Positions 11,411 to 26,278 of a stretch of 64,000 bases of DNA are shown piece by piece. Position numbers and translations under genes: made by a program. The first letter of the stretch is position 1, and the number at the start of each line of letters is the position of its first letter. Source of the DNA: Actinomycetota bacterium (GTDB taxonomy: Bacteria; Actinomycetota; CADDZG01; JAHWKV01); assembly GCA_030447305.1 (NCBI GenBank), contig JAUJPC010000002.1, positions 384,927-448,926 on the forward strand, given 5' to 3'. The notes below the pieces were generated by a model. It was not told where the DNA came from. It searched no databases and saw only the letters and a list, made by a program, of their open reading frames with translations.

Positions 11411-12379
11411 ATGGCGCAAGAGCATCCCACAGTGATGTACGAGCAACTCCACCGTCCCAAGCTAGGGTTCTCTGGCCCGCAGGCGCTGTGGTTTCTCGAC
11501 CAGCTGGTCAGCAACCAGGTGGAGAATTTAACCCCCGGGCAGGGCCTTGAAGCCCTTCTCCTGACGCCCAAGGGCCGGATCACCTCCGTTCTTCGAATTC
11601 TGGCTACTGCGCAAGGGGCTCTTGTCGACGCCGACGGCGGAGACCTCCAGGGTCTTTACGATTTCTTCGCCAATCGGGTGTTCGCCACCCGGGTCCAGGT
11701 GAGCGACGTCACGGACGATTTTCTTATCCTCAGGCTCCTGGGGCCGAACGCTCTGTCAACCGTGGCGGCGGGTCTGGAGCTCAGCGAAGCCATGCCGGAG
11801 GGCGCCCACTGCAATTTGAGCGTCGGGTCGGCAATCGTGGTGGCCCTGGCTCCACCTTTCGAAGGCGTGGACCTGTGGGTCCGGCCGGAGCGCATGCCGG
11901 ACATACTCGCCGTGCTCGAAAGATGCCGGATCCGAACGATCGACCGTTCCGAATACGAGGTGATGAGAGTCGAGGCGGGCGTCCCGGCATTCGATCCGGA
12001 CCTGAGCGGGAGCTACCTGCCCCAGGAGGCTGCGCTGGAGCGGGCCGTCCACTACAGCAAGGGATGCTACCTGGGGCAGGAGGCGGTGGCGATGGCTCAG
12101 CGGGGCCGGGTTCGCAAGCGCCTGCGCCACCTGAATTTCACCTCTGAGACGGCACTGGGCGAGGTTTCCTTCGACGGTGAGGCCGCCGGCACGGTGACCA
12201 GTGTCTCCCGCAGAGGCTACGGCATTGGAATGATCAAAACGGCCGTGCCGCCGGACTCCCAGGTCACAGTCGGGGATACGAGAGCGCCCGCCACGGTGAA
12301 GGAGCTGCCCGGCACGGTATACGGGCCGAGCGTCCCGAGCGCCCGGGAGCTCCGAGAGCGCCTCCGGAACCCTGAGTGA
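11411..12379 (+). CDS. folate-binding aminomethyltransferase-like protein (YgfZ/GcvT family)
   Basis: GcvT-like fold signature; C-terminal SRRGYGIGMIK region. Confidence 0.6.
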   Translation: MAQEHPTVMYEQLHRPKLGFSGPQALWFLDQLVSNQVENLTPGQGLEALLLTPKGRITSVLRILATAQGALVDADGGDLQGLYDFFANRVFATRVQVSDVTDDFLILRLLGPNALSTVAAGLELSEAMPEGAHCNLSVGSAIVVALAPPFEGVDLWVRPERMPDILAVLERCRIRTIDRSEYEVMRVEAGVPAFDPDLSGSYLPQEAALERAVHYSKGCYLGQEAVAMAQRGRVRKRLRHLNFTSETALGEVSFDGEAAGTVTSVSRRGYGIGMIKTAVPPDSQVTVGDTRAPATVKELPGTVYGPSVPSARELRERLRNPE

Positions 12380-12383
12380 CCCG

Positions 12384-13919
12384 GTGAGCAGGCGCTCCGC
12401 GTTCGGCAGGGCCGCAGTCGCGATGGTTGCCGCCCTGCTCGTGGTTTTTGGAGGCCGCAGCCTGTCGCCACGTATCTCGTACCCCCCGGCCCGAGTCGCC
12501 TCACTTTTAGTCGCCCTGGTTCCCGGAGACTTTGCCACCTTCATGATCGAGCGCCTGGGTCCGCTTGCGCTGAGGGGCTTCGGAGTCGGTGTGAACATCG
12601 CCGCGGTCATTGCCGGCGGGTTCCTCGGCATCTGGATCCTGAAAGGCTCCGATTCCCGGAAGGCCCGGCGAGCGATCGCAGCCGGTTCGGTGATGTTCGT
12701 AGTTTCCGTGCTGCTGGCTCTGGGCGACGTTGGGGGGCTGTCGTTCCTTGCGGTGGTCGCTTACTTCCTTGCCGCGCTCGTCTTTGCGGTGATCAGCCTC
12801 GACTCATCCCTACTGGCCGCAGTTGAGCCCCGTCGGGTGGAGGGTGACGAGACACCCCTGGATGCGATGTCTCGCTCACGTCGCAGCTTCGTCGTCAAGG
12901 CCGGCTGGGCTGTGGGAGGCCTCCTTGCCGGCGGCAGCGTGCTGCGGGCGATCTTTGTCCGGCGGGGTGCCCCGAAGGTGAAGATCGTGGAGGCTGCCCG
13001 GCCATATGTCGCGCCCGCGGACGACAACTTCCCCGTGATCCCGGGCCACACACCCGAGATCACGGCGACCGAGGACTTCTACAACGTGGACATCAACATC
13101 GTTAAGCCGGTGGTGGACCACGCCGGCTGGAAGCTCAAGATCCACGGTCTTGTCGAGACCCCGTACGAGCTGAGCTACCAGCAGCTGCAGGACGATTTCG
13201 AGGTGGTGGAGATGGCCCACACGCTGACCTGCATCTCCAACGACGTCGGAGGGGACCTCATCTCCACCGCCATATGGCGCGGGGTGCGGCTAAGGGACGT
13301 GCTGGAAAGAGCGAAGCTCAGGGAAGGGATCGTCGACATCGTGTTTCGGGGAGAGGAGGGGTACTCGGACTCCATCCCCCTCGACGAGGCGCTCCAGGAC
13401 GACACTCTGGTGGTGTTCGGCATGAACGGAGAGGCGCTCAACACCAAGCACGGCTTCCCGGCACGGATCATCGTGCCGAATATCTACGGGATGAAGAACG
13501 TGAAATGGCTGACGGAGATCGAGGCAGTCAACGTGGACTACCAGGGTTACTGGATGGTCCGGGGCTGGAGCGACGAAGCCGTTGTCAAGACGCAATCGAG
13601 GTTCGACATCCCATCCGACACCGCCAGGGTCAGGCGGGGAGCTCGCCTCTCGGGTGTCGCGTGGGCGGGGGACCGTGGGATCCGGCGGGTGGAGATTTCC
13701 ACCGACCGGGGCGAAACCTGGAAGCCGGCGGTGCTGAAAAGGGAGCTGTCGAAGAGGACCTGGCGTCTGTGGGCCTCCGAGCTGGACACCGCCCCGGGAA
13801 AGGTTCGGGTTCTGGTCCGGGCGGTCGACGGAACGGGCGACGTCCAGGTCGCCCAGGGTTCCCGGCCACATCCCTCCGGAGCCACCGGTTACCACCTGCT
13901 GGACCTGACGGTGGAGTGA
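12384..13919 (+). CDS. molybdopterin-dependent oxidoreductase (sulfite oxidase family) with N-terminal membrane domain
   Basis: HTLTCISN, FPARIIVPNIYGMKNVKWL Moco-binding motifs; several N-terminal TM segments. Confidence 0.75.
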   Translation: MSRRSAFGRAAVAMVAALLVVFGGRSLSPRISYPPARVASLLVALVPGDFATFMIERLGPLALRGFGVGVNIAAVIAGGFLGIWILKGSDSRKARRAIAAGSVMFVVSVLLALGDVGGLSFLAVVAYFLAALVFAVISLDSSLLAAVEPRRVEGDETPLDAMSRSRRSFVVKAGWAVGGLLAGGSVLRAIFVRRGAPKVKIVEAARPYVAPADDNFPVIPGHTPEITATEDFYNVDINIVKPVVDHAGWKLKIHGLVETPYELSYQQLQDDFEVVEMAHTLTCISNDVGGDLISTAIWRGVRLRDVLERAKLREGIVDIVFRGEEGYSDSIPLDEALQDDTLVVFGMNGEALNTKHGFPARIIVPNIYGMKNVKWLTEIEAVNVDYQGYWMVRGWSDEAVVKTQSRFDIPSDTARVRRGARLSGVAWAGDRGIRRVEISTDRGETWKPAVLKRELSKRTWRLWASELDTAPGKVRVLVRAVDGTGDVQVAQGSRPHPSGATGYHLLDLTVE

Positions 13920-13976
13920 GATAGACCCTTACGACCGGACGGGAGCCGTCCCCCTCCTCAAGGTTAGACTGCCGGG

Positions 13977-15383
13977 ATGAAGACCGAGCTTGCGATCCTC
14001 GGCGGGGGGAACGGCGGTTACGCTGCTGCTTTGCGGGCCGTGCAGCTGGGTCTCGACGTCACCCTGGTCGAGAAGGGGAAAGTTGGCGGAACCTGCCTGC
14101 ACGTCGGGTGCATCCCCACCAAGGCGCTCCTTCACTCGGCGGACCTTGTGGAGAGCTTCCGCAAAGCCGGCGACTTCGGGGTTGTGGCGCAGCCGGCAAC
14201 CGTCGACTGGCCCAAGGTGCTGTCCCGCAAGGACTTCGTGGTCTCCAAGCACTTCAAGGGACTGAGCGCGCTGCTAAAAGCCAAGGGGATCAAAGTGGTG
14301 GAGGGTAAAGGGCGCCTGTCCTCGCCGAATACCATCGAGGTCGATGGGTCAGAAACGATCGAGGCCCGTTCCGTGATCCTGGCCTCGGGGTCCTACGCCA
14401 GGTCGCTTCCGTTTATCGAGGTCGACGGCGAAGCCTTCATCACCTCCGACCACGCGCTGTCGCTCGACTCGATGCCGCAGTCGATCATCGTCGTCGGTGC
14501 GGGTGCGGTCGGACTGGAGTTTGCCAGCGTCTTCGCATCCTTCGGAGCGGCGGTTACGTTGGTCGAGGCGCTGCCGAGGCTGGCTCCCGGAGAGGACGAG
14601 GAGGTCTCCAAGGAGGTCCAGCGCCAGTTCGAGAAGCGCAACATCAAGGTCTACACCGGTGCCAAGGTGACCTCGGCCGAGCGGACTGAGGCCGGCGCCA
14701 CCGTGACCCTCGAGACCTCCGCCGGCAAGGAGCAGACCCTACAGGCTGACCGGTGCCTCATCGCCATTGGACGGGGACCCGTGTCGGACGGCTTGGGATA
14801 CGAGGAGTCCGGTGTCAAGCTAGAGCGAGGTTTCGTCGTCGCCGACGAGCTATGTCGCACCGGCGTCGACGGCGTATGGGCGGTGGGCGATGTCATCACG
14901 CAGCCGGCCCTCAATCTGCCGTTCCCTCATTTTCAACTGGCCCATGTGGCGTTCGCCGAGGGCATTCGGGTCGCGGAGCAGGTCGCCCGCGTGCCCGGCT
15001 ACGGGCCTGTGGACTATGCCGGCGTACCTAGAGCGACCTACAGCTTTCCCGAGATCGCCTCGGTGGGTTTCACCGAGGCGCAGGCCAAAGAGGCCGGATA
15101 CTCGGTTAGGACCTCCAAGCTGCCCTGGGCGGCGGTCGGCAAGGCGACCATCCTTGGTGAATCGGCGGGCTTCGTCAAGGTCGTTGCCGAAAAGAACGGT
15201 CCGATTCTGGGCGTCCACATGGTAGGCCCTCGAGTAACCGAGCTGATCGCAGAGGCCCAGCTCATCACCAACTGGGAGGCCTATCCAACGGAGGTCGGGG
15301 CGTTGATCCATCCCCATCCCACGCTCTCGGAGGGCATCGGCGAGGCAATCCTTTCCCTGGCCGGGACCCCCCTGCACCGCTAG
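13977..15383 (+). CDS. lpd: dihydrolipoyl dehydrogenase (E3)
   Basis: FAD motif GGGNGGYAAA, redox disulfide GGTCLHVGCIPTK, full-length. Confidence 0.92.
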   Translation: MKTELAILGGGNGGYAAALRAVQLGLDVTLVEKGKVGGTCLHVGCIPTKALLHSADLVESFRKAGDFGVVAQPATVDWPKVLSRKDFVVSKHFKGLSALLKAKGIKVVEGKGRLSSPNTIEVDGSETIEARSVILASGSYARSLPFIEVDGEAFITSDHALSLDSMPQSIIVVGAGAVGLEFASVFASFGAAVTLVEALPRLAPGEDEEVSKEVQRQFEKRNIKVYTGAKVTSAERTEAGATVTLETSAGKEQTLQADRCLIAIGRGPVSDGLGYEESGVKLERGFVVADELCRTGVDGVWAVGDVITQPALNLPFPHFQLAHVAFAEGIRVAEQVARVPGYGPVDYAGVPRATYSFPEIASVGFTEAQAKEAGYSVRTSKLPWAAVGKATILGESAGFVKVVAEKNGPILGVHMVGPRVTELIAEAQLITNWEAYPTEVGALIHPHPTLSEGIGEAILSLAGTPLHR

Positions 15384-15471
15384 AGAACGGCTGTCTGATC
15401 GTCGTAACGGCGTTATCGGTCCCACATAGGTAAAACTAGAGACCAGATACCGGGGTAGAGAGGAGTCGAAC

Positions 15472-18165
15472 ATGCCTTACGACCTTTTTAGCGGGCACCT
15501 GCCCGACCCCTACCCCGACGAGACCGCCGAGTGGCTGGCGGCCATCGACGACGTGGCCGACACCCAGGGCCGCGCCCGGGCCCGGTACCTGCTTCACCGC
15601 ATCTTTCTGCACGCCCGGCAGCGCCAGATCGGCCTGCCGTCGATGGTGCAGACGGACTACATCAACACCATCCCGCCGGAGAGCGAGCCCTACTACCCGG
15701 GCAACGAAGCCCTGGAGTTCCGCATCCGCCAGCTCATCCGCTGGAACGCTGCCGTCATGGTGATCCGGGCTAACAAGCTTCACGTGGGCATCGGCGGGCA
15801 CCTGGCGACCTACGCTTCGGCCGCCGGGCTCTACGAGGTCGGCTTCAACCACTTCTTCCGGGGCAAGGACCACCCGGGCGGCGGGGACCAGGTCTGGCTT
15901 CAGGGTCACGCGGCTCCCGGCATGTACGCCCGCGGCTACCTGGAGGGCCGCATCACCGAGCAGCAGCTGGAGCACTTCCGCCGCGAGGCGGCCTGGAAGG
16001 GCGGCCTTTCGTCGTATCCGCACCCCCGGCTCATGCCAGACTTCTGGGAGTTCCCCTCGGTGTCGATGGGCCTGGTGTCGATCAGCGCCATTTATCAGGC
16101 GCGCTTCAACCGCTACCTGCACCAACGAGGGATCAAGGACACGTCTCAGCAGCGGGTGTGGGCCTTCCTCGGCGACGGCGAGATGGATGAGCCGGAGAGC
16201 GCCGGCGCACTGCACCTGGCTGCCAACGAGCCCTTGAGCAACCTCATTTTCGTCGTCAACTGCAACCTGCAGCGCCTTGACGGCCCCGTCAGGGGCAACG
16301 CCAAGATCATTCAGGAGCTGGAGTCCCTGTTCCAGGGAGCCGGCTGGAACGTGATCAAGGTCATCTGGGGTCGGGAGTGGGACGACCTGCTGGCCCGCGA
16401 CGCCGAGGGTGCGCTCGTTCACCAGATGAACACCACTCCCGACGGCGAGTTCCAGCGGTACTCCATCGAGTCGGGCGCCTACATCCGAGAGCACTTCTTC
16501 GGCCCCGACCCCCGGCTCCGCAGGATGGTGGAGCACCTGTCCGATGACGACCTGTGGCGACTGAAGCGTGGCGGTCACGACTACCGCAAGGTGCACGCCG
16601 CTTACCAGACCGCCGCCGAGCTGCACGATAAGCCCACGGTGATCCTGGCCAAGACGGTCAAGGGCTGGGCACTGGGTCCTGAGTTCGAGGCCCGCAATGC
16701 CGCCCACCAGATCAAGAAGATGAACGAACAGGAGCTGAAGCGCCTGGCGGAGCGGCTGAACATCGAGGTCTCGGACCGCAAGCTCTCGGGCGAGGAGCCG
16801 CCCTTCTTCCACCCGGGCGAGGACTCCGACGAGGTCCAGTATCTCAAGCACCGCCGCCAGGTGCTGGGCGGCTTCATTCCGCAACGCCGGACCAAGGCCC
16901 GCAAGCTGGTCCTGCCGGGAGACAAGGTCTACGACGTCTTCGACGCCGGCACCGAGAGCTCGAAACGGGAGGTATCCACCACAATGGCGTTCGTCGGCCT
17001 GCTTCGGGACCTGATGAAAGACCGCGACTTCGGTCCGCGGGTGGTTCCCATCATCCCGGACGAGGGGAGGACCTTCGGACTGGAGTCCCTGTTCAAGGAG
17101 TTCAAGATTCACTCGTCCGTGGGCCAGCTCTACGAACCGGTGGACCACAACATGCTACTGAGCTACTCGGAGAGCAAGCACGGCCAGATCCTGGAGGAGG
17201 GAATCACCGAGGCGGGCAGTATGGGGTCCATGACCGCCGCGGGGACTTCGTACGCCACCCACGGCGAGCACATGGTTCCATTCTTCCTGTTTTACTCGAT
17301 GTTCGGCTTTCAGCGAATCGGCGACCTGATCTGGGCGTTCGGGGATGCCAGGGGTCGGGGGTTTTTGCTGGGATGCACCGCCGGCAGAACCACACTGAAC
17401 GGTGAGGGCCTGCAGCACGCCGACGGCCACTCGATGCTCGTGGCGACCACCGTTCCAAACTGCATGGCCTACGATCCAGCGTTCGCCTACGAGACGGCGG
17501 AGATCGTCCAGTACGGCCTACGGCGAATGATCGAGGGGAACCAGGACATCTTCTATTACCTGGCTCTCTACAACGAGAACTACCTCATGCCGGCCAAGCC
17601 GGAGGGCGTGAACGAAGGGATCAGGAAGGGAATCTACAAATTCCGGACGGCGTTGCGGGAACGCAAGCACCGGGTGCAGCTGCTAGGCAGCGGACCCATA
17701 CTGGCGACTCAGGTCCTCAAGGCGCAGCAGATGCTGGACGCCGACCACGAGGTCGCTGCCGATGTCTGGAGCGCGACGAGTTACAAGCTGCTGCGTGAGG
17801 ACTGCCTGGAGACCGAGCGCTGGAACCGGCTGCATCCCGAGGAGGCGCCGAGACCCTCCTACCTGGAGCAGGCCATGAACGGGTCCGAGGGTCCGGTCAT
17901 CGCCGCAACCGACTGGATGAGGTCCGTGCCTGACCAGATCTCACGCTGGGTACCGAGTCCCTATCTGTCCCTGGGCACCGACGGGTTCGGCCGTAGCGAC
18001 ACGCGGGAGAGCTTGAGGCGCCACTTCGAGGTTGATGCAGAGCACATTGTGGTGGCCGCTCTGTCGGCTCTTGCCCAGGCGGGTGAGGTCAAGCCGGAGG
18101 CGGTACAGGCAGCCGTGGAGCGCTATGGCGTGGATCCGGAGGCGGTCTACTCCGGCCGAGCCTAA
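15472..18165 (+). CDS. aceE: pyruvate dehydrogenase E1 component, homodimeric type
   Basis: 897 aa full-length AceE-type E1; RBS GAGAGGAG upstream. Confidence 0.92.
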   Translation: MPYDLFSGHLPDPYPDETAEWLAAIDDVADTQGRARARYLLHRIFLHARQRQIGLPSMVQTDYINTIPPESEPYYPGNEALEFRIRQLIRWNAAVMVIRANKLHVGIGGHLATYASAAGLYEVGFNHFFRGKDHPGGGDQVWLQGHAAPGMYARGYLEGRITEQQLEHFRREAAWKGGLSSYPHPRLMPDFWEFPSVSMGLVSISAIYQARFNRYLHQRGIKDTSQQRVWAFLGDGEMDEPESAGALHLAANEPLSNLIFVVNCNLQRLDGPVRGNAKIIQELESLFQGAGWNVIKVIWGREWDDLLARDAEGALVHQMNTTPDGEFQRYSIESGAYIREHFFGPDPRLRRMVEHLSDDDLWRLKRGGHDYRKVHAAYQTAAELHDKPTVILAKTVKGWALGPEFEARNAAHQIKKMNEQELKRLAERLNIEVSDRKLSGEEPPFFHPGEDSDEVQYLKHRRQVLGGFIPQRRTKARKLVLPGDKVYDVFDAGTESSKREVSTTMAFVGLLRDLMKDRDFGPRVVPIIPDEGRTFGLESLFKEFKIHSSVGQLYEPVDHNMLLSYSESKHGQILEEGITEAGSMGSMTAAGTSYATHGEHMVPFFLFYSMFGFQRIGDLIWAFGDARGRGFLLGCTAGRTTLNGEGLQHADGHSMLVATTVPNCMAYDPAFAYETAEIVQYGLRRMIEGNQDIFYYLALYNENYLMPAKPEGVNEGIRKGIYKFRTALRERKHRVQLLGSGPILATQVLKAQQMLDADHEVAADVWSATSYKLLREDCLETERWNRLHPEEAPRPSYLEQAMNGSEGPVIAATDWMRSVPDQISRWVPSPYLSLGTDGFGRSDTRESLRRHFEVDAEHIVVAALSALAQAGEVKPEAVQAAVERYGVDPEAVYSGRA

Positions 18166-18175
18166 GCTCGGCCCT

Positions 18176-18227
18176 GCATGGACCGCGCCTGCGCCGACGC
18201 ACCGGCGCAGGCGCGGTCCATCGTTTT
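18176..18227 (+). terminator. rho-independent terminator after aceE
   Basis: About 19 bp GC-rich inverted repeat followed by GTTTTGG; a second hairpin (GGCCGAGC ctaa GCTCGGCC) embeds the aceE stop codon. Confidence 0.75.
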
Positions 18228-18354
18228 GGTCAACGACGCCCAGGATGTTACCGATACCACCTAATTTGAAATCGGGCACATCCCTTAGCCGAAACATTGA
18301 GTCCTGACTGGTTGGGTAAGATGCGGGGAAGTCCTCAAATAAGGTGTCGGGAAT

Positions 18355-19788
18355 ATGCAGCAGTTCAAGTTGCCGCAGCTCGGCGAGACGGTTCTGGAAG
18401 CAACGGTCACGCGCTGGCTCAAGCGGCCCGGGGACACAGTCGAAGTCGATGAGCCTCTGGTTGAGGTGTCCACCGACAAGGTTGACAGCGAGATACCCTC
18501 TCCGGCCGCCGGCGCCCTGACCAGGATTCTGGTCCAGGAAGGGGAAACCGTCCTAGTGGGCTCGGTGATGGCCGAGATCGACGGTGAAGGTCAGGCCGCC
18601 CCGCAGAACGGCTCTCCGGCTCAGGACGTGCCGGCTCCTCCCAAAGACCCTGCGCCTACCCCTTCGGCGCCTTTGGCATCACAACCGCCTCCGGCGCCTC
18701 CTCCCTCGAGGCCTGGCCCCGCTCCGGCAGCCCCTGGTAAGCCCGCTTCAGGCGAGTCCTCCGACCGCCACGCATCGGACTCCTCCTCTTCAGACGGGTT
18801 GGATGGCGACTCCCAGCCTTTTCGGGGTGTCCTCTCACCCCTGGTGCGGAAATTGGCGGCCGAACACGGGCTCGACCTGGCCGACATCCCGGGCACCGGC
18901 ACCGGCGGCCGAATCACCAAGCAGGATGTACTGGACGCGGCGGCCGGCCGGCCTAAGGAAGGCCCCGCAGCGGATATCGCAGCCCGCCCTGCCGAGCCGG
19001 CGCCCCCCCGGCCGGCCTCACCTTCCGGCATCGCCCCGGCGGCTCAGCGCTCGCAGGGGCTGGAAGAGACGGTGCAGGTCGGGGCAATGCGGAAAGCAAT
19101 CGCGGAGCACATGGTTTCGTCCTCCAACGAAACCGCACGGGCATGGAACACCATCGAGGTCGACCTGACGCGTGTCTCCCGGCTGAGAGCGCAGGCGGGG
19201 CCTGCTTTCAAGGCACGCGAGGGCTTCTCCCTCACGTGGATGCCGTTCGTTTCCAAGGCTCTGACCCAGGCGCTGCTGCGCTTCCCGTTGCTTAACTCAA
19301 CCTGGAATGGCGACGGAACCGTCACGCGGAAACGTTACGTGAACCTAGGCATCGCCGTCGCCCTCGAAAACGGCCTTATCGTGCCGGTGGTCAAGGGAGC
19401 CGAAACCATGAGCGTCGTCGGACTTGCCCGGGCCATCAGGGACGTCGCAGACCGGGCACGCAAAAAGAAGCTCACTCCGGATGAGGTGCAGGGTGGAACC
19501 TTTACGATCACCAACCCCGGCGGTTTCGGTTCCATCATGTCGGTGCCCATCATCAACCGGGGACAGGCCGCCATCCTGGCTTTCGACGCAGTGGTCAAGC
19601 GGGCAGTTGTGGTGGCCGACGAGGACGGGGAGGACGCCATCGCCATCCGGCAGATGACGTACCTGTCCATGTCCTGGGACCACCGCATCATCGACGGGGC
19701 AGAAGCGGCCCAGTTCCTCGCGCACCTGCGCAGCCTCTTGGAGGAGGCCGACTTCACTCCGGATCTAAGCGGTCTGCTTTCGAGCTGA
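18355..19788 (+). CDS. dihydrolipoamide acyltransferase (E2) of a 2-oxoacid dehydrogenase complex
   Basis: Lipoyl domain (VSTDKVDSEIPSP), Pro/Ala linker, E3-binding domain, catalytic DHRIIDGAEAAQF. Confidence 0.9.
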   Translation: MQQFKLPQLGETVLEATVTRWLKRPGDTVEVDEPLVEVSTDKVDSEIPSPAAGALTRILVQEGETVLVGSVMAEIDGEGQAAPQNGSPAQDVPAPPKDPAPTPSAPLASQPPPAPPPSRPGPAPAAPGKPASGESSDRHASDSSSSDGLDGDSQPFRGVLSPLVRKLAAEHGLDLADIPGTGTGGRITKQDVLDAAAGRPKEGPAADIAARPAEPAPPRPASPSGIAPAAQRSQGLEETVQVGAMRKAIAEHMVSSSNETARAWNTIEVDLTRVSRLRAQAGPAFKAREGFSLTWMPFVSKALTQALLRFPLLNSTWNGDGTVTRKRYVNLGIAVALENGLIVPVVKGAETMSVVGLARAIRDVADRARKKKLTPDEVQGGTFTITNPGGFGSIMSVPIINRGQAAILAFDAVVKRAVVVADEDGEDAIAIRQMTYLSMSWDHRIIDGAEAAQFLAHLRSLLEEADFTPDLSGLLSS

Positions 19789-20525
19789 TGCGGCCGATTC
19801 TGCAGATCGATGCAGGATCGGTTTCCTACTCAGCCGCCTATGCCTGGCAGCGCGACCTTCACGACCGGCGGACGGCAAAGCAAATCCCCGATGTGCTGCT
19901 GCTGCTGGAGCATCCTCACGTCTTCAGCCTGGGCCGGGGCTTTCGTCCCGGCCACCTCCTTTCAGATCCGGCAGACCTTCGGAGGAGGGGAATCGAGATC
20001 CACGAAGCGGACCGCGGTGGGAGCATCACCTACCACGGGCCGGGCCAGCTGGTCGCCTATCCGGTCGTGGACCTGCGTACCGATGAGGCGGGTCATCCGG
20101 ACGTCATCAAGTACCTGCGCCTGCTGGAGGGCGCAACCCTGGCTACCGTTTCCGATTTTGGCATCGGTGCCTGCTTACGGCCCGGGCTGACCGGAATATG
20201 GGTGGGGAAGGACAAGCTGGCGGCCATCGGCGTCAATGTCAGCCGGGGGGTTACTAAACACGGTGCTGCGATCAACGTTTCCACCGACCTGGAGTATTTT
20301 TCCTGGATGATTGCTTGCGGCATTCCGGATGCCGGTGTCACATCGATGGAGCGGGAGCTGGGCCATTGCGTCCCCCTCCGTTTCGTGGCTTCAACCCTTG
20401 CCGGTCATCTGGCCGCATTGCTGGGTCGCCGTCTTGAAGCCGGCACGCTCGAGGATCTGGGGCTGAAGCTCGGCCCGGACGAGCTCTCGGATCGGCTTCC
20501 GCAGGGGGCCGGAACTCATGGCTAG
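19788..20525 (+). CDS. lipB: lipoyl(octanoyl) transferase
   Basis: LipB family (LLLEHPHVFSLG, ITYHGPGQLVAYPV, AIGVNVS). Confidence 0.9.
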   Translation: MRPILQIDAGSVSYSAAYAWQRDLHDRRTAKQIPDVLLLLEHPHVFSLGRGFRPGHLLSDPADLRRRGIEIHEADRGGSITYHGPGQLVAYPVVDLRTDEAGHPDVIKYLRLLEGATLATVSDFGIGACLRPGLTGIWVGKDKLAAIGVNVSRGVTKHGAAINVSTDLEYFSWMIACGIPDAGVTSMERELGHCVPLRFVASTLAGHLAALLGRRLEAGTLEDLGLKLGPDELSDRLPQGAGTHG

Positions 20526-22956
20526 GCTGCGTCAGCTCGAAGGCCTCCGGCTTGAGCTGGAGCGCGACGGCATGTCGCTCAGCCCCGAAGAGGTACTGGC
20601 CGACTACAGAATTGCCCATCAAAGCCGACTGGCGTCTCTGGCCGTAACCCGGGAGGTGCGGGCAGGCCGGGCAACCTTCGGTATCTTCGGCGACGGCAAG
20701 GAGGTTGCCGAGTTGGCGATGGCCAGAGCCTTTCGCAACGGCGACTTTCGGGCCGGCTACTATCGCGACCAGACCTTCATGTTTGCCACGGGGATGTCCG
20801 ACCTACGAAAGTTCTTCGCCCAGCTTTACGGAACCAACGACATCGCCGCGGAGCCGGTGGCCGCCGGCCGGCAGATGAACAACCATTTCGGGACCCGCCT
20901 GCTTGACTCCCACGGCCGGTTTACCGATCTCATGGCCGCCAAGCAGTCGAGCACCGACGTATCCCCCACGGCGGGCCAGATGGCACGGCTTTTGGGACTT
21001 GCGTACGCTTCCAAGCTGTATCGGAACGAGCCGGCCCTGGCGGAGGGGCTCGACGGATTCTCGAACCACGGCAACGAGGTGGCGTTCGGGACCATCGGTA
21101 ATGCCGGGACCAGCGAGGGTGTGTTCTTCGAGACGGTGAACGCCGCCGGCGTCCTGCAGGTGCCGATGGCCATCTCGGTGTGGGACGACTGGTACGGCAT
21201 CTCCGTCCCCAACGAGCTGCAAACGACCAGATGGTCGATCAGCGACGCGCTGCGCGGGTTTGAGTGGGACCAGAAGACCGGAACCGGACTGGACATCCAC
21301 GTAGTGAAAGGATGGGATTACCCCGGCCTATGTCTGGCCTACCTGCGGGGAATCGAGCGAATCAGGGTCAGCCACATTCCCGCGCTGTTCCATGTGGTCG
21401 AGATGACGCAGCCCCAGGGCCACTCGGCAAGCGGCAGCCATGAGCGCTACAAATCGAAGGAGAGGCTGGCTTTCGAGCGGGACCACGACCCCCTCGTCCG
21501 TATGCGTGGCTGGATGGAAGGCCAGGGCCTCTTTCCACCGGAGCTGCTCGACGAGCTGGAGTCTGAAGACGAGGCGTTGGTCGAAAGCGACCGGCGAGCG
21601 GCCTGGACGGCTCACATGGCGCCCATTCGCCGGGAACAGAAGTCCGCGCTGGCCCTGCTGGAGGGCATGTCGGAAGAGATGCATGGAGCCCGGGGCCTAC
21701 CCGACCTGATCGCCGCTCTGCGGAGCCCGGAGCGGCTGAACCGCCGGTTGATCCACACGACTCTGTTTGAGGCTCTGGTGGCATCAAAAGACCACAGCGG
21801 TCCGGCCAAGAGCACGCTCGCCGAGCATGTGGACCGGATTGAGCGTGACAACGATCGTCTCTTCAACTCCCACCTGTACAGCGAGTCGGATGAGTCTCCG
21901 CTCAAGGTGCCCGAACGCAAGCCCAATTACTCGAAAACCTCCGAGGTGGTCGATGGGCGTCAGGTGCTGCAGCGGTGCTTCGACTACCACCTGAAGAAGG
22001 ACGCCCGGCTCTTCATCGTCGGGGAGGACGTTGGCAAGCTGGGGGACGTGAACTTGGTGTTCCAGGACCTGAACCATAGGTACGGCGACCTCAGGGTGAC
22101 CGACACCGGCATCCGGGAGGCGACGATCTTGGGGCAGGGGATAGGCGCTGCCATCCGGGGCCTCCGTCCGCTGGTGGACATCCAGTACCTTGATTACCTT
22201 CCCTACGCCCTGCAGACGATGATGGACGACCTGGCGACGCTTCATTACCGCTCCGCCGGGGGCCAGAAGGCGCCCGTCATCGTACGGACCAAAGGGCACC
22301 GCTTCGATGGGATGTGGCACACGGGGTCGCCGATGGCGATGATCCTGCACTCCTGCCGCGGCATCTATCTTGCGGTTCCTCGAGACATGACCCGGGCTGC
22401 CGGCTTCTACAACACCCTGATGCAATCAGACAATCCGGGTATCGTGATCGAGGTTATGCGGGGATACCGCAGCAAAGAGCGGGTTCCCGATAACCTCGGC
22501 ACGTTCACGGTGCCCCTTGGGATACCGGAGATACTGAGAACTGGGTCCGATCTGACCATTGTTACCTACGCGGAGTGCTGCAACGTGGCCCTCGAAGCAG
22601 CTCAAGTGCTGGAGGCATTCGATGTCGACGCGGAGATCATCGACGTGCAGACCCTGAATCCTTTCGACATCTCCCACTCGATAGTGGACTCCCTGAGGAA
22701 GACGAGCGCAGTGCTGTTCCTGGATGAGGACGTTCCCGGAGGTGCTTCGGCCTACATGATGCAGCAGGTGCTGGAGGACCAGCAGGGTTGGCAGTATCTT
22801 GACGCCTCGCCGCGCACGCTGACCGCCAAGGCCAACCGCTCACCGTACGGCATCGACGGCGGCTACTTCTCCAAGCCCAACGTCCACAACGTCGTCCGGA
22901 CGTGCCACGAGATCGTCTCGGAGACCAGAGCCGGCGGGCTTCCTCCACTGCGTTGA
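20518..22956 (+). CDS. ThDP-dependent 2-oxoacid dehydrogenase E1 component, fused alpha-beta subunits, non-canonical ThDP motif
   Basis: 812 aa; C-terminal half is transketolase-like E1-beta; N-half E1-alpha-like with GNAGTSEG...WDD where GDG...NN is expected; start overlaps lipB stop. Confidence 0.7.
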   Translation: MARLRQLEGLRLELERDGMSLSPEEVLADYRIAHQSRLASLAVTREVRAGRATFGIFGDGKEVAELAMARAFRNGDFRAGYYRDQTFMFATGMSDLRKFFAQLYGTNDIAAEPVAAGRQMNNHFGTRLLDSHGRFTDLMAAKQSSTDVSPTAGQMARLLGLAYASKLYRNEPALAEGLDGFSNHGNEVAFGTIGNAGTSEGVFFETVNAAGVLQVPMAISVWDDWYGISVPNELQTTRWSISDALRGFEWDQKTGTGLDIHVVKGWDYPGLCLAYLRGIERIRVSHIPALFHVVEMTQPQGHSASGSHERYKSKERLAFERDHDPLVRMRGWMEGQGLFPPELLDELESEDEALVESDRRAAWTAHMAPIRREQKSALALLEGMSEEMHGARGLPDLIAALRSPERLNRRLIHTTLFEALVASKDHSGPAKSTLAEHVDRIERDNDRLFNSHLYSESDESPLKVPERKPNYSKTSEVVDGRQVLQRCFDYHLKKDARLFIVGEDVGKLGDVNLVFQDLNHRYGDLRVTDTGIREATILGQGIGAAIRGLRPLVDIQYLDYLPYALQTMMDDLATLHYRSAGGQKAPVIVRTKGHRFDGMWHTGSPMAMILHSCRGIYLAVPRDMTRAAGFYNTLMQSDNPGIVIEVMRGYRSKERVPDNLGTFTVPLGIPEILRTGSDLTIVTYAECCNVALEAAQVLEAFDVDAEIIDVQTLNPFDISHSIVDSLRKTSAVLFLDEDVPGGASAYMMQQVLEDQQGWQYLDASPRTLTAKANRSPYGIDGGYFSKPNVHNVVRTCHEIVSETRAGGLPPLR

Positions 22957-23903
22957 GCGGCGTCTTTCTGGGAGACTCGATACCCACCCGGTCGAACCTC
23001 GGTGCGGTCCCCGCGCGGGTGGCCCGTCCACCCTGGCTGAAGACGAAGGTGCGCACCGGCCTGAATTACGGCGAGCTAAAGCACCTCGTGAAGGGCCTGG
23101 CGCTACACACCGTCTGCGAGCAGGCGTCCTGCCCCAACATCTACGAGTGCTGGGAGGCGAAGGAGGCAACCTTTCTGATTCTCGGTGGCCGGTGCACCCG
23201 CCGGTGCGGCTTCTGCGATATCCAGACCGGCAAGCCGGGCCCTCTGGACTTCGCCGAACCGGAGCGCGTCGCTTCGGCTGTCGAGCACCTCGGCCTGAGC
23301 TTCGCCGTGGTGACCGGGGTGGAGCGTGACGATGCCTCACCGGTCGAGGTCGCCGGCATCTGGGCGGCCACTATCCGAGCAATCCACCGGCGCATTCCTG
23401 CGTGCCGGGTGGAGGTTCTGACCGGAGACCTGAAGGGCAAGCCCGAGGCGGTTCAAACCGTGATCGAGTCGGGACCTGATGTGTTTGCCCACAACCTGGA
23501 GACCTCTCGCCGGCTGCACCGCAAGATTCGGCCGGGGTTCCGGTACGAACGTTCCTTGGAGGTGCTGCGAATGGCCAAGGAGATGGACCCGGCCCTTCCT
23601 ACGAAGTCCAACATTATCGTCGGAATGGGGGAGACTGACGAGGAGGTTATCGAGTGCCTCTACGATCTTCATGAAGCCCGCGTGGACCTGGTGACCATCG
23701 GCCAGTATCTGGCGCCGTCGGTCAACCACCATCTGCCCGTGGACAGGTGGGTCACGCCGGAGATGTTTGCCGAGTACGCGGCCGCCGGGGAGGAGATGGG
23801 GTTTGCCTGGGTCGAGTCCGGTCCCCTTGTCCGATCGTCATATCACGCAGGCAAGCAGTACCAGGCGGCGACGTCACGCCTGAACGCGCTCTACGGTTCC
23901 TGA
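22953..23903 (+). CDS. lipA: lipoyl synthase (radical SAM)
   Basis: CPNIYECW and CTRRCGFCDI cluster motifs; start set to TTG overlapping upstream TGA (TTGA); track ORF starts 22902. Confidence 0.88.
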   Translation: MSGVFLGDSIPTRSNLGAVPARVARPPWLKTKVRTGLNYGELKHLVKGLALHTVCEQASCPNIYECWEAKEATFLILGGRCTRRCGFCDIQTGKPGPLDFAEPERVASAVEHLGLSFAVVTGVERDDASPVEVAGIWAATIRAIHRRIPACRVEVLTGDLKGKPEAVQTVIESGPDVFAHNLETSRRLHRKIRPGFRYERSLEVLRMAKEMDPALPTKSNIIVGMGETDEEVIECLYDLHEARVDLVTIGQYLAPSVNHHLPVDRWVTPEMFAEYAAAGEEMGFAWVESGPLVRSSYHAGKQYQAATSRLNALYGS

Positions 23904-25114
23904 CGTTCCTCGGCCTGGGCCTGCTTGATCTCCGGCTGACTTGGCTCCACCAGGTCTGGTTCGGCAGGTACCTCCAAGGACTCAATAACCTCGACCGAAG
24001 TGTCTACCTCAGGGGCCGGGGCTTCGGCTTCCTCGAAATCGGTCAGCACCCCTGCCGCGCCGGGGGGCCCGGGTAGTTCTCGCTCGCTATCCTCTGGGAG
24101 AGGTTGCTCGGCATCGCGCCCGGAGGCGGTGAGCGGCTCGGGCGCCGGATCTGACGCAAGCACAGGAACCGGTCCCGGCTCGCGTTTTGATTTCGGAGTC
24201 GGCTCCAGTACCGGCTCGGTCGCCGGCACCTCCACGGCAGTCGGCTCCATGGAGCCGGAATCGATAGTAACCTCGTCCCCTGCAATGGCCCCCGCAGGTG
24301 CCGCCTTCGCACTTCCCCGCAGCTTGGTGAGGCCAACAAGCGAAAATCCAAGCACGGCAATCGCAGTGAGCTGGCTTCCCGTAAGTCCGGTACCGAACCA
24401 GGTCTTGTCCACCCGGGTGAAGTCGGTGATGATCCTTCCCGCCGAGTACAGCGCGGCCCACGTGAGTACCAGAAACCCATTCGGTCGGGGCTTCCGGCTC
24501 AGGACCATCAGCACCAGAAAGATGATCAGTGCCCAGATGGCGTCGTATAGCGCAGTCTGGTGTACCACCATGCCGGGTCTGATACACCCGTCCGGGCTGG
24601 GATATATCGACGGATCGCACGGCGGGGGGGAGATGAGCTCGCCGCCCTTGTACTCCCATCCCCAGAAGCCGCTGGTGGTCCGGCCGAGATGGTCTCCGAT
24701 GACCAGGTCCCCGATGCGCCCCACTGCGGTGCCTATCGCGAGGCCGGGAGCTCCCAGGTCGGCGAGTCTCGCAAAGTCGAGGTTTTTGACTCGGCAGTAA
24801 ATGTAAGCCGCTAGGAATCCCCCCAGGAGCCCTCCCATTAGCGAGATGCCGCCTTTGTAGATCTGCAGGTACTCGATGGGGCTCTGGAATTGAGCGCTAT
24901 GTCCGATTATGTAGGCCAGGCGAGCGCCGACGATGGCCCCCAGGACACCTACGACGGCCGCGTTCCAGGCGTGGTCTTCGTCGAAGCCGGTTCTCCGGGC
25001 ACGGCGCGCCATGAGGGTGGCGCCGAGGAAGTAGCCCACGGCTATGCCGACCCCGTGGGGGGAGACGCTCAGATTCTCCAGGGGAATTCGGGGAATCACT
25101 TCCCATCCCAGCAT
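23891..25114 (-). CDS. lgt: prolipoprotein diacylglyceryl transferase with acidic Pro/Glu-rich C-terminal extension
   Basis: Lgt family core; start set to ATG preceded by GGAGGAGG; about 130 aa low-complexity tail. Confidence 0.85.
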   Translation of the reverse strand: MLGWEVIPRIPLENLSVSPHGVGIAVGYFLGATLMARRARRTGFDEDHAWNAAVVGVLGAIVGARLAYIIGHSAQFQSPIEYLQIYKGGISLMGGLLGGFLAAYIYCRVKNLDFARLADLGAPGLAIGTAVGRIGDLVIGDHLGRTTSGFWGWEYKGGELISPPPCDPSIYPSPDGCIRPGMVVHQTALYDAIWALIIFLVLMVLSRKPRPNGFLVLTWAALYSAGRIITDFTRVDKTWFGTGLTGSQLTAIAVLGFSLVGLTKLRGSAKAAPAGAIAGDEVTIDSGSMEPTAVEVPATEPVLEPTPKSKREPGPVPVLASDPAPEPLTASGRDAEQPLPEDSERELPGPPGAAGVLTDFEEAEAPAPEVDTSVEVIESLEVPAEPDLVEPSQPEIKQAQAEERQEP

Positions 25115-25271
25115 GGTGCGTGCCTCCTCCAGTAAACCGCTCCAGGCGAAGCATACCGGGCTGCGCGAGGAGCTCTGACACTTCCGAGCGCCCGCCATAC
25201 TTCGTGGATAGAATGATTCTCCGGCGGGGATCCCCCCAAAACTTTGAGATCACCTGAAGGAGTCGGATCAA

Positions 25272-25571
25272 ATGACGTACATAATCTGCGAGCCATGCAT
25301 CGGCGTGAAGGACCGGTCCTGTGTGGACGAGTGCCCGGTTGACTGCATCTACGAGGGCGAGGACCAGCTTTACATTCACCCGGAGGAGTGCGTCGACTGC
25401 GACGCCTGCCTGCCCGCCTGCCCGGTTGACGCCATCTACCCCGGGGACAACGTCCCTGCGGAGTGGAAGGAATACATCGCCAAGAACGCCTCCTTCTTCA
25501 GCGAGCATCCCGATGCCACCGGTGGTGCCTCCGAGAGCCCGTACGCACCTTCCGAGGAGCGCAGCGAATAA
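25272..25571 (+). CDS. 7Fe ferredoxin (FdxA-like)
   Basis: [17 protein letters not shown] and [12 protein letters not shown] cluster motifs; AGGAG RBS. Confidence 0.9.
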
Positions 25572-25930
25572 GCTTGGCGCGACCAACTTGGGGGAGAGGG
25601 TCTCGATCCTCTTTTCGATCTCGGGCGACCCTGAGCATCCCTTCAGTGAGGTAACGGGGGTTCTTCAAAGAGTTACCGATGCAGATGGTCCCGATGCCCG
25701 ATATTCCATCGTTCGTCGCAGCGGCGAGGTCGTAGAAGTAAGACACGATGCGATCGTCAAGCTGAAGCTGCTGCCTGCAGGAACCGGACCGCTCCGCACT
25801 CCCGAATCCTGGAAAACCGGCGGCTCCTGATGAAGATGCAGAACTTTTTCTACCGCCACAGCGAGCAACCTCTTGTTTTAGGCGCGGGGTCTGCGAAACT
25901 GTAGGTGGAGTCCACGGCACGGAGCTATAG

Positions 25931-26278
25931 ATGGCCCTGTTCGACAAGTTCAAGCGCTCTGACATGAAGGTGCTTCAGCAGTTCGCCGCAACTCATCAGG
26001 GCGTGGAGGCGTACATGGAGCCGCAGACGCCCACGCGCCCGCAGTCACTGCTGCTGGTGGCCCGCGACGGGGAGTGGGCGCGTGCCACCGTAGCCGACCG
26101 GGGACAGGCCGGAGCCTTCTGCAAGAAGCTCGGGATTCCCTACTACGACGCTGCGGTTGTCGGCTATCCCGACCGGATGAAGGGCTACAAGGGCAAGCCG
26201 GCACCCGAGGCTCCGTCCGCTGAGGAGCTGGAGGCCTGGTTCGCTCAAGGTACGGCCAACGAGCCGGACCTCGGCTAG
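25931..26278 (+). CDS. hypothetical protein
   Basis: 115 aa ORF with GGAG upstream of ATG. Confidence 0.4.
   Translation: MALFDKFKRSDMKVLQQFAATHQGVEAYMEPQTPTRPQSLLLVARDGEWARATVADRGQAGAFCKKLGIPYYDAAVVGYPDRMKGYKGKPAPEAPSAEELEAWFAQGTANEPDLG

Follow-up and report, generated by a model that had tools for sequence, protein, structure and literature searches.

A 64,000-nucleotide stretch of DNA from an Actinomycetota bacterium (the window; contig JAUJPC010000002.1 of assembly GCA_030447305.1) carries, between lipB and lipA, a gene for a 2-oxoacid dehydrogenase E1 component whose α and β subunits are fused and whose thiamine diphosphate (ThDP)-Mg motif is noncanonical. Upstream lie genes for the E3 component (lpd), a second E1 (aceE), and an E2 acyltransferase. 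Is such an E1 an active enzyme, and if so, which E2 and which 2-oxoacid does it use? An initial annotation of this locus had left the pairing of E1 and E2 open. The present analysis indicates that E2-lipB-E1-lipA is likely to form one operon, translationally coupled and transcribed from a promoter of its own, in which an inserted and catalytically competent fused E1 would acylate the co-encoded E2.

The E2-lipB-E1-lipA Unit

Genes were identified from the listing of open reading frames (ORFs) and by profile searches with Pfam and NCBIfam, which bore out the head-to-tail order lpd, aceE, E2, lipB, fused E1, and lipA (Table 1). All junctions after the E2 gene overlap: 1 nt is common to the E2 stop and the lipB ATG, 8 nt to lipB and E1, and 4 nt (TTGA) to E1 and lipA. 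Among loci from related Actinomycetota MAGs (metagenome-assembled genomes), L003, L004, and L005 have all three of these overlaps and L002 has that between E1 and lipA; the fused E1 is 78%–85% identical to the window protein in these four relatives, and 78%–79% in L003–L005. A lipA start overlapping the E1 stop is the sole start position common to L002–L005. The TTG at 22953 was therefore preferred, and a GTG at 22902, which is not common to the relatives, was rejected. Conservation of the overlaps makes translational coupling across E2-lipB-E1-lipA probable. The initial annotation had pointed to the two overlaps flanking E1 and taken them to couple lipoate synthesis to a second E1; the overlaps are real and coupling is probable, but no special mechanistic link follows, since E1 has been inserted into a known E2-lipB-lipA synteny.

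That synteny is presumably present in Mycobacterium and Corynebacterium. As in the actinobacterial aceF/dlaT(sucB)-lipB-lipA arrangement, lipB and lipA of the window follow an E2 of the SucB_Actino type on the same strand; the difference is the E1 gene between lipB and lipA, with its overlapping start and stop codons. The cluster is the known actinobacterial arrangement with an inserted E1, otherwise ordinary central metabolism, and not a new kind of system.

A strong terminator had been noted between aceE and E2, and the folding results agree. The hairpin, with a perfect 19 bp stem (18178-18221) containing 15 G-C pairs and followed by CGTTTTGG, has a predicted stability of −51.9 kcal/mol (z = −6.36), and 0 of 200 shuffled sequences were equally stable. 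It stands within a spacer of 189 nt in which an Rfam scan of positions 13000-26000 (E ≤ 1) detected no riboswitch or small RNA, returning only two subthreshold chance matches. A sigma-70 consensus scan detected no promoter upstream of E2. Comparison of the window with L003, L004, and L005 showed that GTAAGATGC, which contains the hexamer TAAGAT ∼33 nt before the E2 start, is identical in all four, whereas the rest of the spacer diverges. The TAAGAT box is inferred from this comparison to be the promoter of the E2-lipB-E1-lipA unit. In L004, a stretch of 2.4 kb with three minus-strand ORFs, one of them for an extracytoplasmic function (ECF) sigma factor, lies between aceE and E2. A single operon of aceE and E2 was rejected because of the terminator between them and the splitting of the pair by opposite-strand genes in L004. 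Taken together, the overlaps, the terminator, the TAAGAT box, and the L004 split argue that the conserved transcription unit is E2-lipB-E1-lipA, with lpd-aceE as a neighboring unit.

A Variant ThDP-Mg Motif

The canonical form of the ThDP-Mg motif has been described (PMC4428508; PMC12247030), and a CDG variant was already termed "unique" (PMC12247030). The canonical GDG-X(∼26)-NN is absent from the fused E1. HMMER alignment places N195 opposite the GDG Asp (D175 in the Thermus chain 1um9_A, D173 in the Geobacillus chain 1w85_A) and D223-D224 opposite the NN pair (N203-N204 and N201-N202, respectively). The window protein thus reads FGTIG-N195-A-GTSEG...SVW-D223-D224-WYGIS where the Thermus chain has FGDGATSEG...AENNFYAIS and the Geobacillus chain TGDGGTSQG...VQNNRFAIS. 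Spacing and flanks (TSEG, YGIS) are retained, and by this alignment the fused E1 carries an altered ThDP-Mg motif and does not lack one. The swapped motif reported in the initial annotation was therefore aligned correctly: GNA...DD, not GDG...NN, occupies the true motif positions.

The Mg2+ ligands of solved E1s are, as we take it, the GDG Asp, the second Asn of NN, and the backbone carbonyl two residues on. Aligned to these positions, N195 replaces the Asp ligand and D224 the Asn ligand. One carboxylate and one amide oxygen would then still be offered to Mg2+, and the site is probably competent in metal binding.

The motif was scored in 118 of the 120 closest database proteins (57%–100% identity, ∼795–896 residues, several phyla). 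All 118 have [W/L/Y]-D-D at the second site; at the first, 71 have GNA, 46 GDA, and 1 GEA. In a set of 112 loci, gathered from genome and metagenome scans and context look-ups, each of the 110 scorable copies has DD, and the first site is N in 69 of them and either D or E in 41. More distant fused E1s (28%–36% identity) mostly have G[D/E][G/A/S]...DN or NN, apart from a few with DD or ND. In a neighbor-joining tree, the WDD proteins, including that of the window, form one monophyletic clade nested among these distant fused E1s. Within the clade, N195 and D195 are interleaved several times, with one N-to-D reversal inside the Actinomycetota group. A single change from Asn to Asp at the second ligand probably occurred when the clade arose, and the first ligand then became free to be Asp or Asn. 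Describing the motif as swapped therefore captures the N...D state of the window protein but only half the picture, as the constant change across the clade is that from Asn to Asp at the second ligand. Judged by these alignments, the window protein is the charge-conserving, swapped state of a family-wide variant and no private oddity. A scan for covariation with N195 versus D195 gave top columns (232, 358, 254, and others) that resemble clade markers, not charge compensation.

The clade is large, with at least 8000 word-sharing matches, and cross-phylum identity is 50%–60%. Its members occur in Actinomycetota, Acidobacteriota, Gemmatimonadota, Bacteroidota, Chloroflexota, Oligoflexales, and Dormibacterota-labeled MAGs; the nearest relatives of the window protein are from Actinomycetota MAGs. 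Database names are generic ("α-ketoacid dehydrogenase subunit α/β," "thiamine pyrophosphate-dependent enzyme," "transketolase," "2-oxoisovalerate dehydrogenase E1 component"), and a literature search (fused E1s, K11381, the PGAP name) turned up no biochemical study of the WDD clade or of other fused α-β E1s. A large, generically annotated clade thus departs from one of enzymology's most conserved cofactor motifs. The change resembles a two-step ligand exchange and offers a clean system for probing how strict the GDG...NN rule is.

Two proteins within or next to the WDD clade (P0130 and P0140) have S-A-T or Y-A-N in place of G-N/D-A, G or A at the position aligned to the β-subunit Glu, and N or C at that aligned to the β-subunit His. 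These are possibly pseudoenzymes or poor gene models.

Fold and Catalytic Residues

The fused E1 has three Pfam domains, all above gathering cutoffs: E1_dh (residues 45-363, 71.7 bits), Transket_pyr (479-645, 67.9 bits), and Transketolase_C (671-771, 60.2 bits). The AlphaFold2 model has a predicted local distance difference test (pLDDT) score of 94.1 and a predicted template modeling (pTM) score of 0.93; the linker of ∼100 residues (366-470) between the α and β halves is helical and confidently modeled. In Foldseek comparisons, the β half superposes on 1um9_B with a template modeling (TM) score of 0.94 and a root-mean-square deviation of 1.5 Å. TM scores are 0.88–0.94 over the β chains of Thermus E1b (branched-chain type), Geobacillus and human E1p (pyruvate type), and human and Pseudomonas E1b. 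In the arrangement of its domains, the full-length chain is similar to single-chain KGD/SucA and transketolase (TM score 0.55–0.64).

Within the clade, residues Y81, Y82, R83, G117, R118, H123, E205, N208, H302, E534, and H601 vary little or not at all, and the conserved elements include YYRD, GR..M..H, and a P-x-G-H302-S-x-S loop. H302 aligns to α-His271 of 1w85_A, and E534 and H601 align to β-Glu60 and β-His129 of 3duf_B. We take these Geobacillus E1p residues to be the ThDP-activating Glu (β-Glu60) and the catalytic His residues (α-His271 and β-His129). Among 129 clade members from several phyla, 59 columns are invariant, which indicates purifying selection on the clade. On these grounds the fused E1 most likely retains catalytic competence as a ThDP-dependent 2-oxoacid decarboxylase.

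The closest known systems are the heterotetrameric α2β2 E1s, such as Thermus thermophilus HB8 E1b (1UM9) and Geobacillus stearothermophilus E1p (1W85/3DUF). They give the best sequence and fold matches, have the same three Pfam domains in the same order, share the ThDP-activating Glu and both catalytic His positions, and are likewise associated in genomes with a lipoyl-bearing E2. In contrast to them, the window protein joins α and β in one polypeptide through the helical linker, has an insertion of ∼25 residues in the α domain, and belongs to a clade with G[N/D]A...DD instead of GDG...NN; its β half is ∼26%–31% identical to theirs. Other fused α-β E1s (∼650–750 residues, "2-oxoisovalerate dehydrogenase E1 component," presumably KEGG K11381) are also single chains, and the first residue of their NN pair is often already Asp (xDN). 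They are, however, 28%–32% identical to the window protein, fall outside the WDD clade in the neighbor-joining tree, and with rare exceptions retain G[D/E]G together with canonical Asn as a ligand (DN or NN). By sequence, then, the fused E1 is a member of the known α/β E1 superfamily, yet of a distinct fused clade with a noncanonical metal motif. Fused E1-like ThDP enzymes of the QncN/NapB type act in biosynthetic gene clusters, where with a lipoyl-bearing E2-like partner they supply C2 units from ketose phosphates. By this general description, a fused α-β E1 and an E2-like partner are shared with the window, whose context is instead a housekeeping one (lpd, aceE, lipB, lipA, lgt).

The Probable Partner E2

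The window E2 has Biotin_lipoyl (3-75), E3_binding (160-193), and 2-oxoacid_dh (237-465) domains in Pfam searches and passes the cutoff of TIGR02927 (440.3 versus 423.45 bits). The match skips the first 128 model positions. A single lipoyl domain is present, and the Pro/Ala/Ser-rich linkers (residues ∼95–160 and 195–235) are unusually long; mycobacterial and corynebacterial homologs have two to three lipoyl domains. Before the C-terminal DLSGLL, the E2s of the window (ADFTP) and L004 carry an ADF(T/A)(P/S) segment that is extra relative to three non-actinobacterial E2s. In actinobacterial E2p, a Phe-containing C-terminal insertion blocks trimer-trimer contacts (PMC10415282).

In Corynebacterium glutamicum, AceF provides lipoyl groups for both AceE and OdhA (PMC10415282). 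Because an E2 of the AceF/DlaT type serves several E1s there, the window E2 probably serves both AceE and the fused E1. The arrangement would differ from the mixed pyruvate dehydrogenase/2-oxoglutarate dehydrogenase (PDH/ODH) supercomplex in the single lipoyl domain of E2 and in an additional client E1 that is an α-β fusion, not OdhA/Kgd. Which E1 pairs with this E2 is accordingly less open than the initial annotation held: the conserved unit, the box shared by four genomes, and the split in L004 associate the E2 with the fused E1, and sharing with AceE is probable. A tblastn search found no other E1, E2, or E3 paralog within the window.

The association of fused E1 and E2 extends beyond this genome. 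The fused E1 lies in the E2 operon in the window and in L003–L005, and at ten loci outside the Actinomycetota group a WDD-clade E1 with the same N/D...DD motif is followed by partner genes (Table 1). Since E1-E2(-E3) adjacency, the classic E1-E2-E3 layout, recurs outside the Actinomycetota group, the clade appears to be lipoamide dependent, and in the fused E1 this dependence is most likely genuine. With a specific E2 identified as partner by the Actinomycetota operon and by the E1-E2-E3 operons, the substrate can be addressed by reconstitution. Two of the ten loci, L034 and L050, are on high-GC metagenome contigs, and the stand-alone E1β that follows the fused E1 in them is canonical (NF006667, 317 bits). 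In the part of the L050 contig examined, there is no separate E1α gene, and an AcoC-like α/β-hydrolase is encoded upstream.

Proposed Mechanism and Substrate

In the proposed mechanism, an ancestral actinobacterial E2(aceF/dlaT)-lipB-lipA unit would have gained the fused E1 gene in this Actinomycetota lineage. The fused E1, as a homodimer mimicking the α2β2 form, would decarboxylate a 2-oxoacid and load the acyl group onto the lipoyl domain of the co-encoded E2 by reductive acylation, after which the lipoyl domain would be reoxidized by Lpd. AceE, transcribed separately with lpd, would draw on the same E2 for pyruvate. The metal site would be rearranged, with D224 for the canonical Asn and N195 for the canonical Asp.

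Several observations weigh against this account. The T-tract after the terminator hairpin is short (4 T), and transcription may therefore continue past it from aceE. An Asn in place of the GDG Asp is unusual. In ∼90% of the loci from other phyla, the gene is solitary with no E2 in the flank, many of these contigs being short. Finally, homology does not fix the substrate class, because no NCBIfam equivalog cutoff is reached: the PDH models TIGR03181 (E1α), TIGR03182, NF006667 (E1β), and NF008854 gave 93.7, 52.9, 159.2, and 152.6 bits against cutoffs of 411, 394, 321, and 454, respectively.

Among solved chains, the α half matches Thermus E1b (76 bits), Geobacillus E1p (42 bits), and human E1b (29 bits), with no human E1p α chain among the matches at E ≤ 0.01. 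The β half matches Pyrobaculum 1ik6 (159 bits), Thermus E1b (153 bits), Geobacillus E1p (121 bits), and Pseudomonas E1b (120 bits). A branched-chain or other non-pyruvate 2-oxoacid is favored as the substrate, because AceE already handles pyruvate and, of the solved E1s, that of Thermus (E1b) is the closest relative. If the enzyme is a branched-chain 2-oxoacid E1, pathway annotation would be improved for many MAGs of mostly uncultured soil and freshwater lineages.

Possible Alternative Functions of the Fused E1

The main rival to this proposal, unlikely but deserving attention, is that the fused E1 represents another E1 isoenzyme of pyruvate dehydrogenase, standing in for AceE on the same E2, for example under other conditions or regulation. 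The top-scoring NCBIfam models are indeed those of PDH E1β and PDH E1α, though far under cutoff; L051, L061, and L080 have a complete E1-E2-E3 operon as is typical of PDH complexes, and an E2 of actinobacterial E2p type is encoded alongside. Nevertheless, with a full-scoring AceE (1344 bits) encoded 2.3 kb upstream, another pyruvate E1 would be redundant, the α half scores higher with Thermus E1b than with Geobacillus E1p and has no human E1p α match at E ≤ 0.01, and the clade is equidistant from all defined PDH models.

It is also conceivable, although doubtful, that the G[N/D]A...WDD fused E1s constitute an unrecognized functional class, lipoamide dependent or partly E2 independent, with a substrate of their own and an altered metal site, possibly of other metal preference or regulation, and that the module was also recruited to LRR-Roc-COR-TIR proteins. 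The Actinomycetota operon would in that case provide the first genomic handle by which an orphan clade is connected with lipoylation and with one particular E2. Two proteins of ∼1600 residues, P0128 (L032, 2246-7063) and P0129 (L113, 6001-10890), belong to the same clade (42%–43% identical to the window protein, motif GNA/GNG...WDD). In both, an N-terminal E1 module is followed by leucine-rich repeats (LRR), a Roc GTPase, COR-A/COR-B, and a ThsB-like TIR domain. Their neighbors are a ThsB-like TIR and a SLATT protein in L032, and a serine recombinase and another TIR protein in L113; these contexts are defense-island-like and unexpected for a metabolic E1 module.

An E2-independent ThDP enzyme, a carboligase or decarboxylase of the transketolase, DXS, or acetoin-cleaving kind present in the operon by an accident of insertion, is improbable. 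Such an enzyme would suit the names "transketolase" and "thiamine pyrophosphate-dependent enzyme" often given to clade members in the sources, the lack of an E2 neighbor at most loci from other phyla, the superposition of the whole chain on single-chain KGD and transketolase, and the AcoC-like hydrolase gene in L050. It would leave unexplained an E1_dh domain where Transketolase_N would be expected, the conservation of both H302 and H601, which align to the histidines of lipoamide reductive acylation, the adjacency to E2 in at least ten loci outside the Actinomycetota group, and the conserved overlaps with lipB and lipA.

A dead or regulatory pseudo-E1, for example a scaffold for E2 or the lipoylation enzymes, is very improbable: the window protein has lost the canonical GDG Asp and the active sites of P0130 and P0140 are clearly degenerate, but all other cofactor and catalytic residues are kept, the invariant D224 is able to supply a carboxylate, proteins with D195 and with N195 are intermingled on the tree and show no further decay, and cross-phylum identity is very high.

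Gene Content of the Window

AceE (TIGR00759), LipB (TIGR00214/NF010925), LipA (TIGR00510), and Lpd (TIGR01350) all pass equivalog cutoffs, and AceE stays below the cutoff of the AKGDH_not_PDH exception model in NCBIfam (1168.8 versus 1408.3 bits).

Table 1. Features of the 2-Oxoacid Dehydrogenase and Lipoylation Cluster in the Window, and Genes Downstream of WDD-Clade E1s at Loci outside the Actinomycetota Group
Feature	Location	Strand	Basis or remark
lpd, dihydrolipoyl dehydrogenase (E3)	13977-15383	+	TIGR01350, 488.9 bits (cutoff 408.8); Pyr_redox_2 and Pyr_redox_dim domains
aceE, homodimeric-type pyruvate dehydrogenase E1	15472-18165	+	TIGR00759, 1343.9 bits (cutoff 859.9)
Intrinsic-terminator-like hairpin 3′ of aceE	18178-18231	+	19-bp stem, 6-nt loop, then CGTTTTGG
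TAAGAT −10-like box, candidate promoter of E2-lipB-E1-lipA	18317-18322	+	Comparative alignment, four genomes
E2 acyltransferase, actinobacterial AceF/DlaT (SucB_Actino) type	18355-19788	+	Lipoyl, peripheral subunit-binding (PSBD), and catalytic domains; TIGR02927
lipB, octanoyl/lipoyl transferase	19788-20525	+	NF010925, 181.7 bits (cutoff 155); TIGR00214, 136 bits
Fused E1 α-β, 812 residues, G[N/D]A...WDD clade	20518-22956	+	E1_dh, Transket_pyr, and Transketolase_C
Variant ThDP-Mg motif, E1 residues 194-229: G-N195-A-GTSEG...W222-D223-D224-W-Y226-GIS	21097-21204	+	Alignment to 1um9_A and 1w85_A
lipA, lipoyl synthase, TTG start	22953-23903	+	NF004019, 391.7 bits; TIGR00510, 330.9 bits
lgt, prolipoprotein diacylglyceryl transferase, 435 residues	23891-25198	−	Convergent with lipA; closes the cluster
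E2 directly downstream of fused E1	L023 (Anaerolineales), L038, L055, L109
E2 ∼3.5 kb downstream of fused E1	L047
E2, then lpd, downstream of fused E1	L051, L061, L080
Stand-alone E1β, E2, and lipA downstream of fused E1	L034 (2594-8101)
Stand-alone E1β, E2, lipA, and lipB downstream of fused E1	L050 (666-8089)

The lgt gene overlaps the 3′ end of lipA by 13 nt, and the same convergence of lipA and lgt is found in L004. Upstream of lpd and codirectional with it are a YgfZ/CAF17-like folate-binding Fe-S cluster factor (11411-12379, + strand) and a 511-residue molybdopterin oxidoreductase resembling sulfite oxidase (12384-13919, + strand), the latter ending 57 nt before lpd. The eukaryotic YgfZ homolog IBA57 is required for maturation of lipoyl synthase, and with a YgfZ-like gene near the lipoylation genes the neighborhood may be functionally coherent. 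The remaining genes of the window (UPF0182, DivIVA, Ser/Thr kinase) are consistent with an actinobacterial chromosome.

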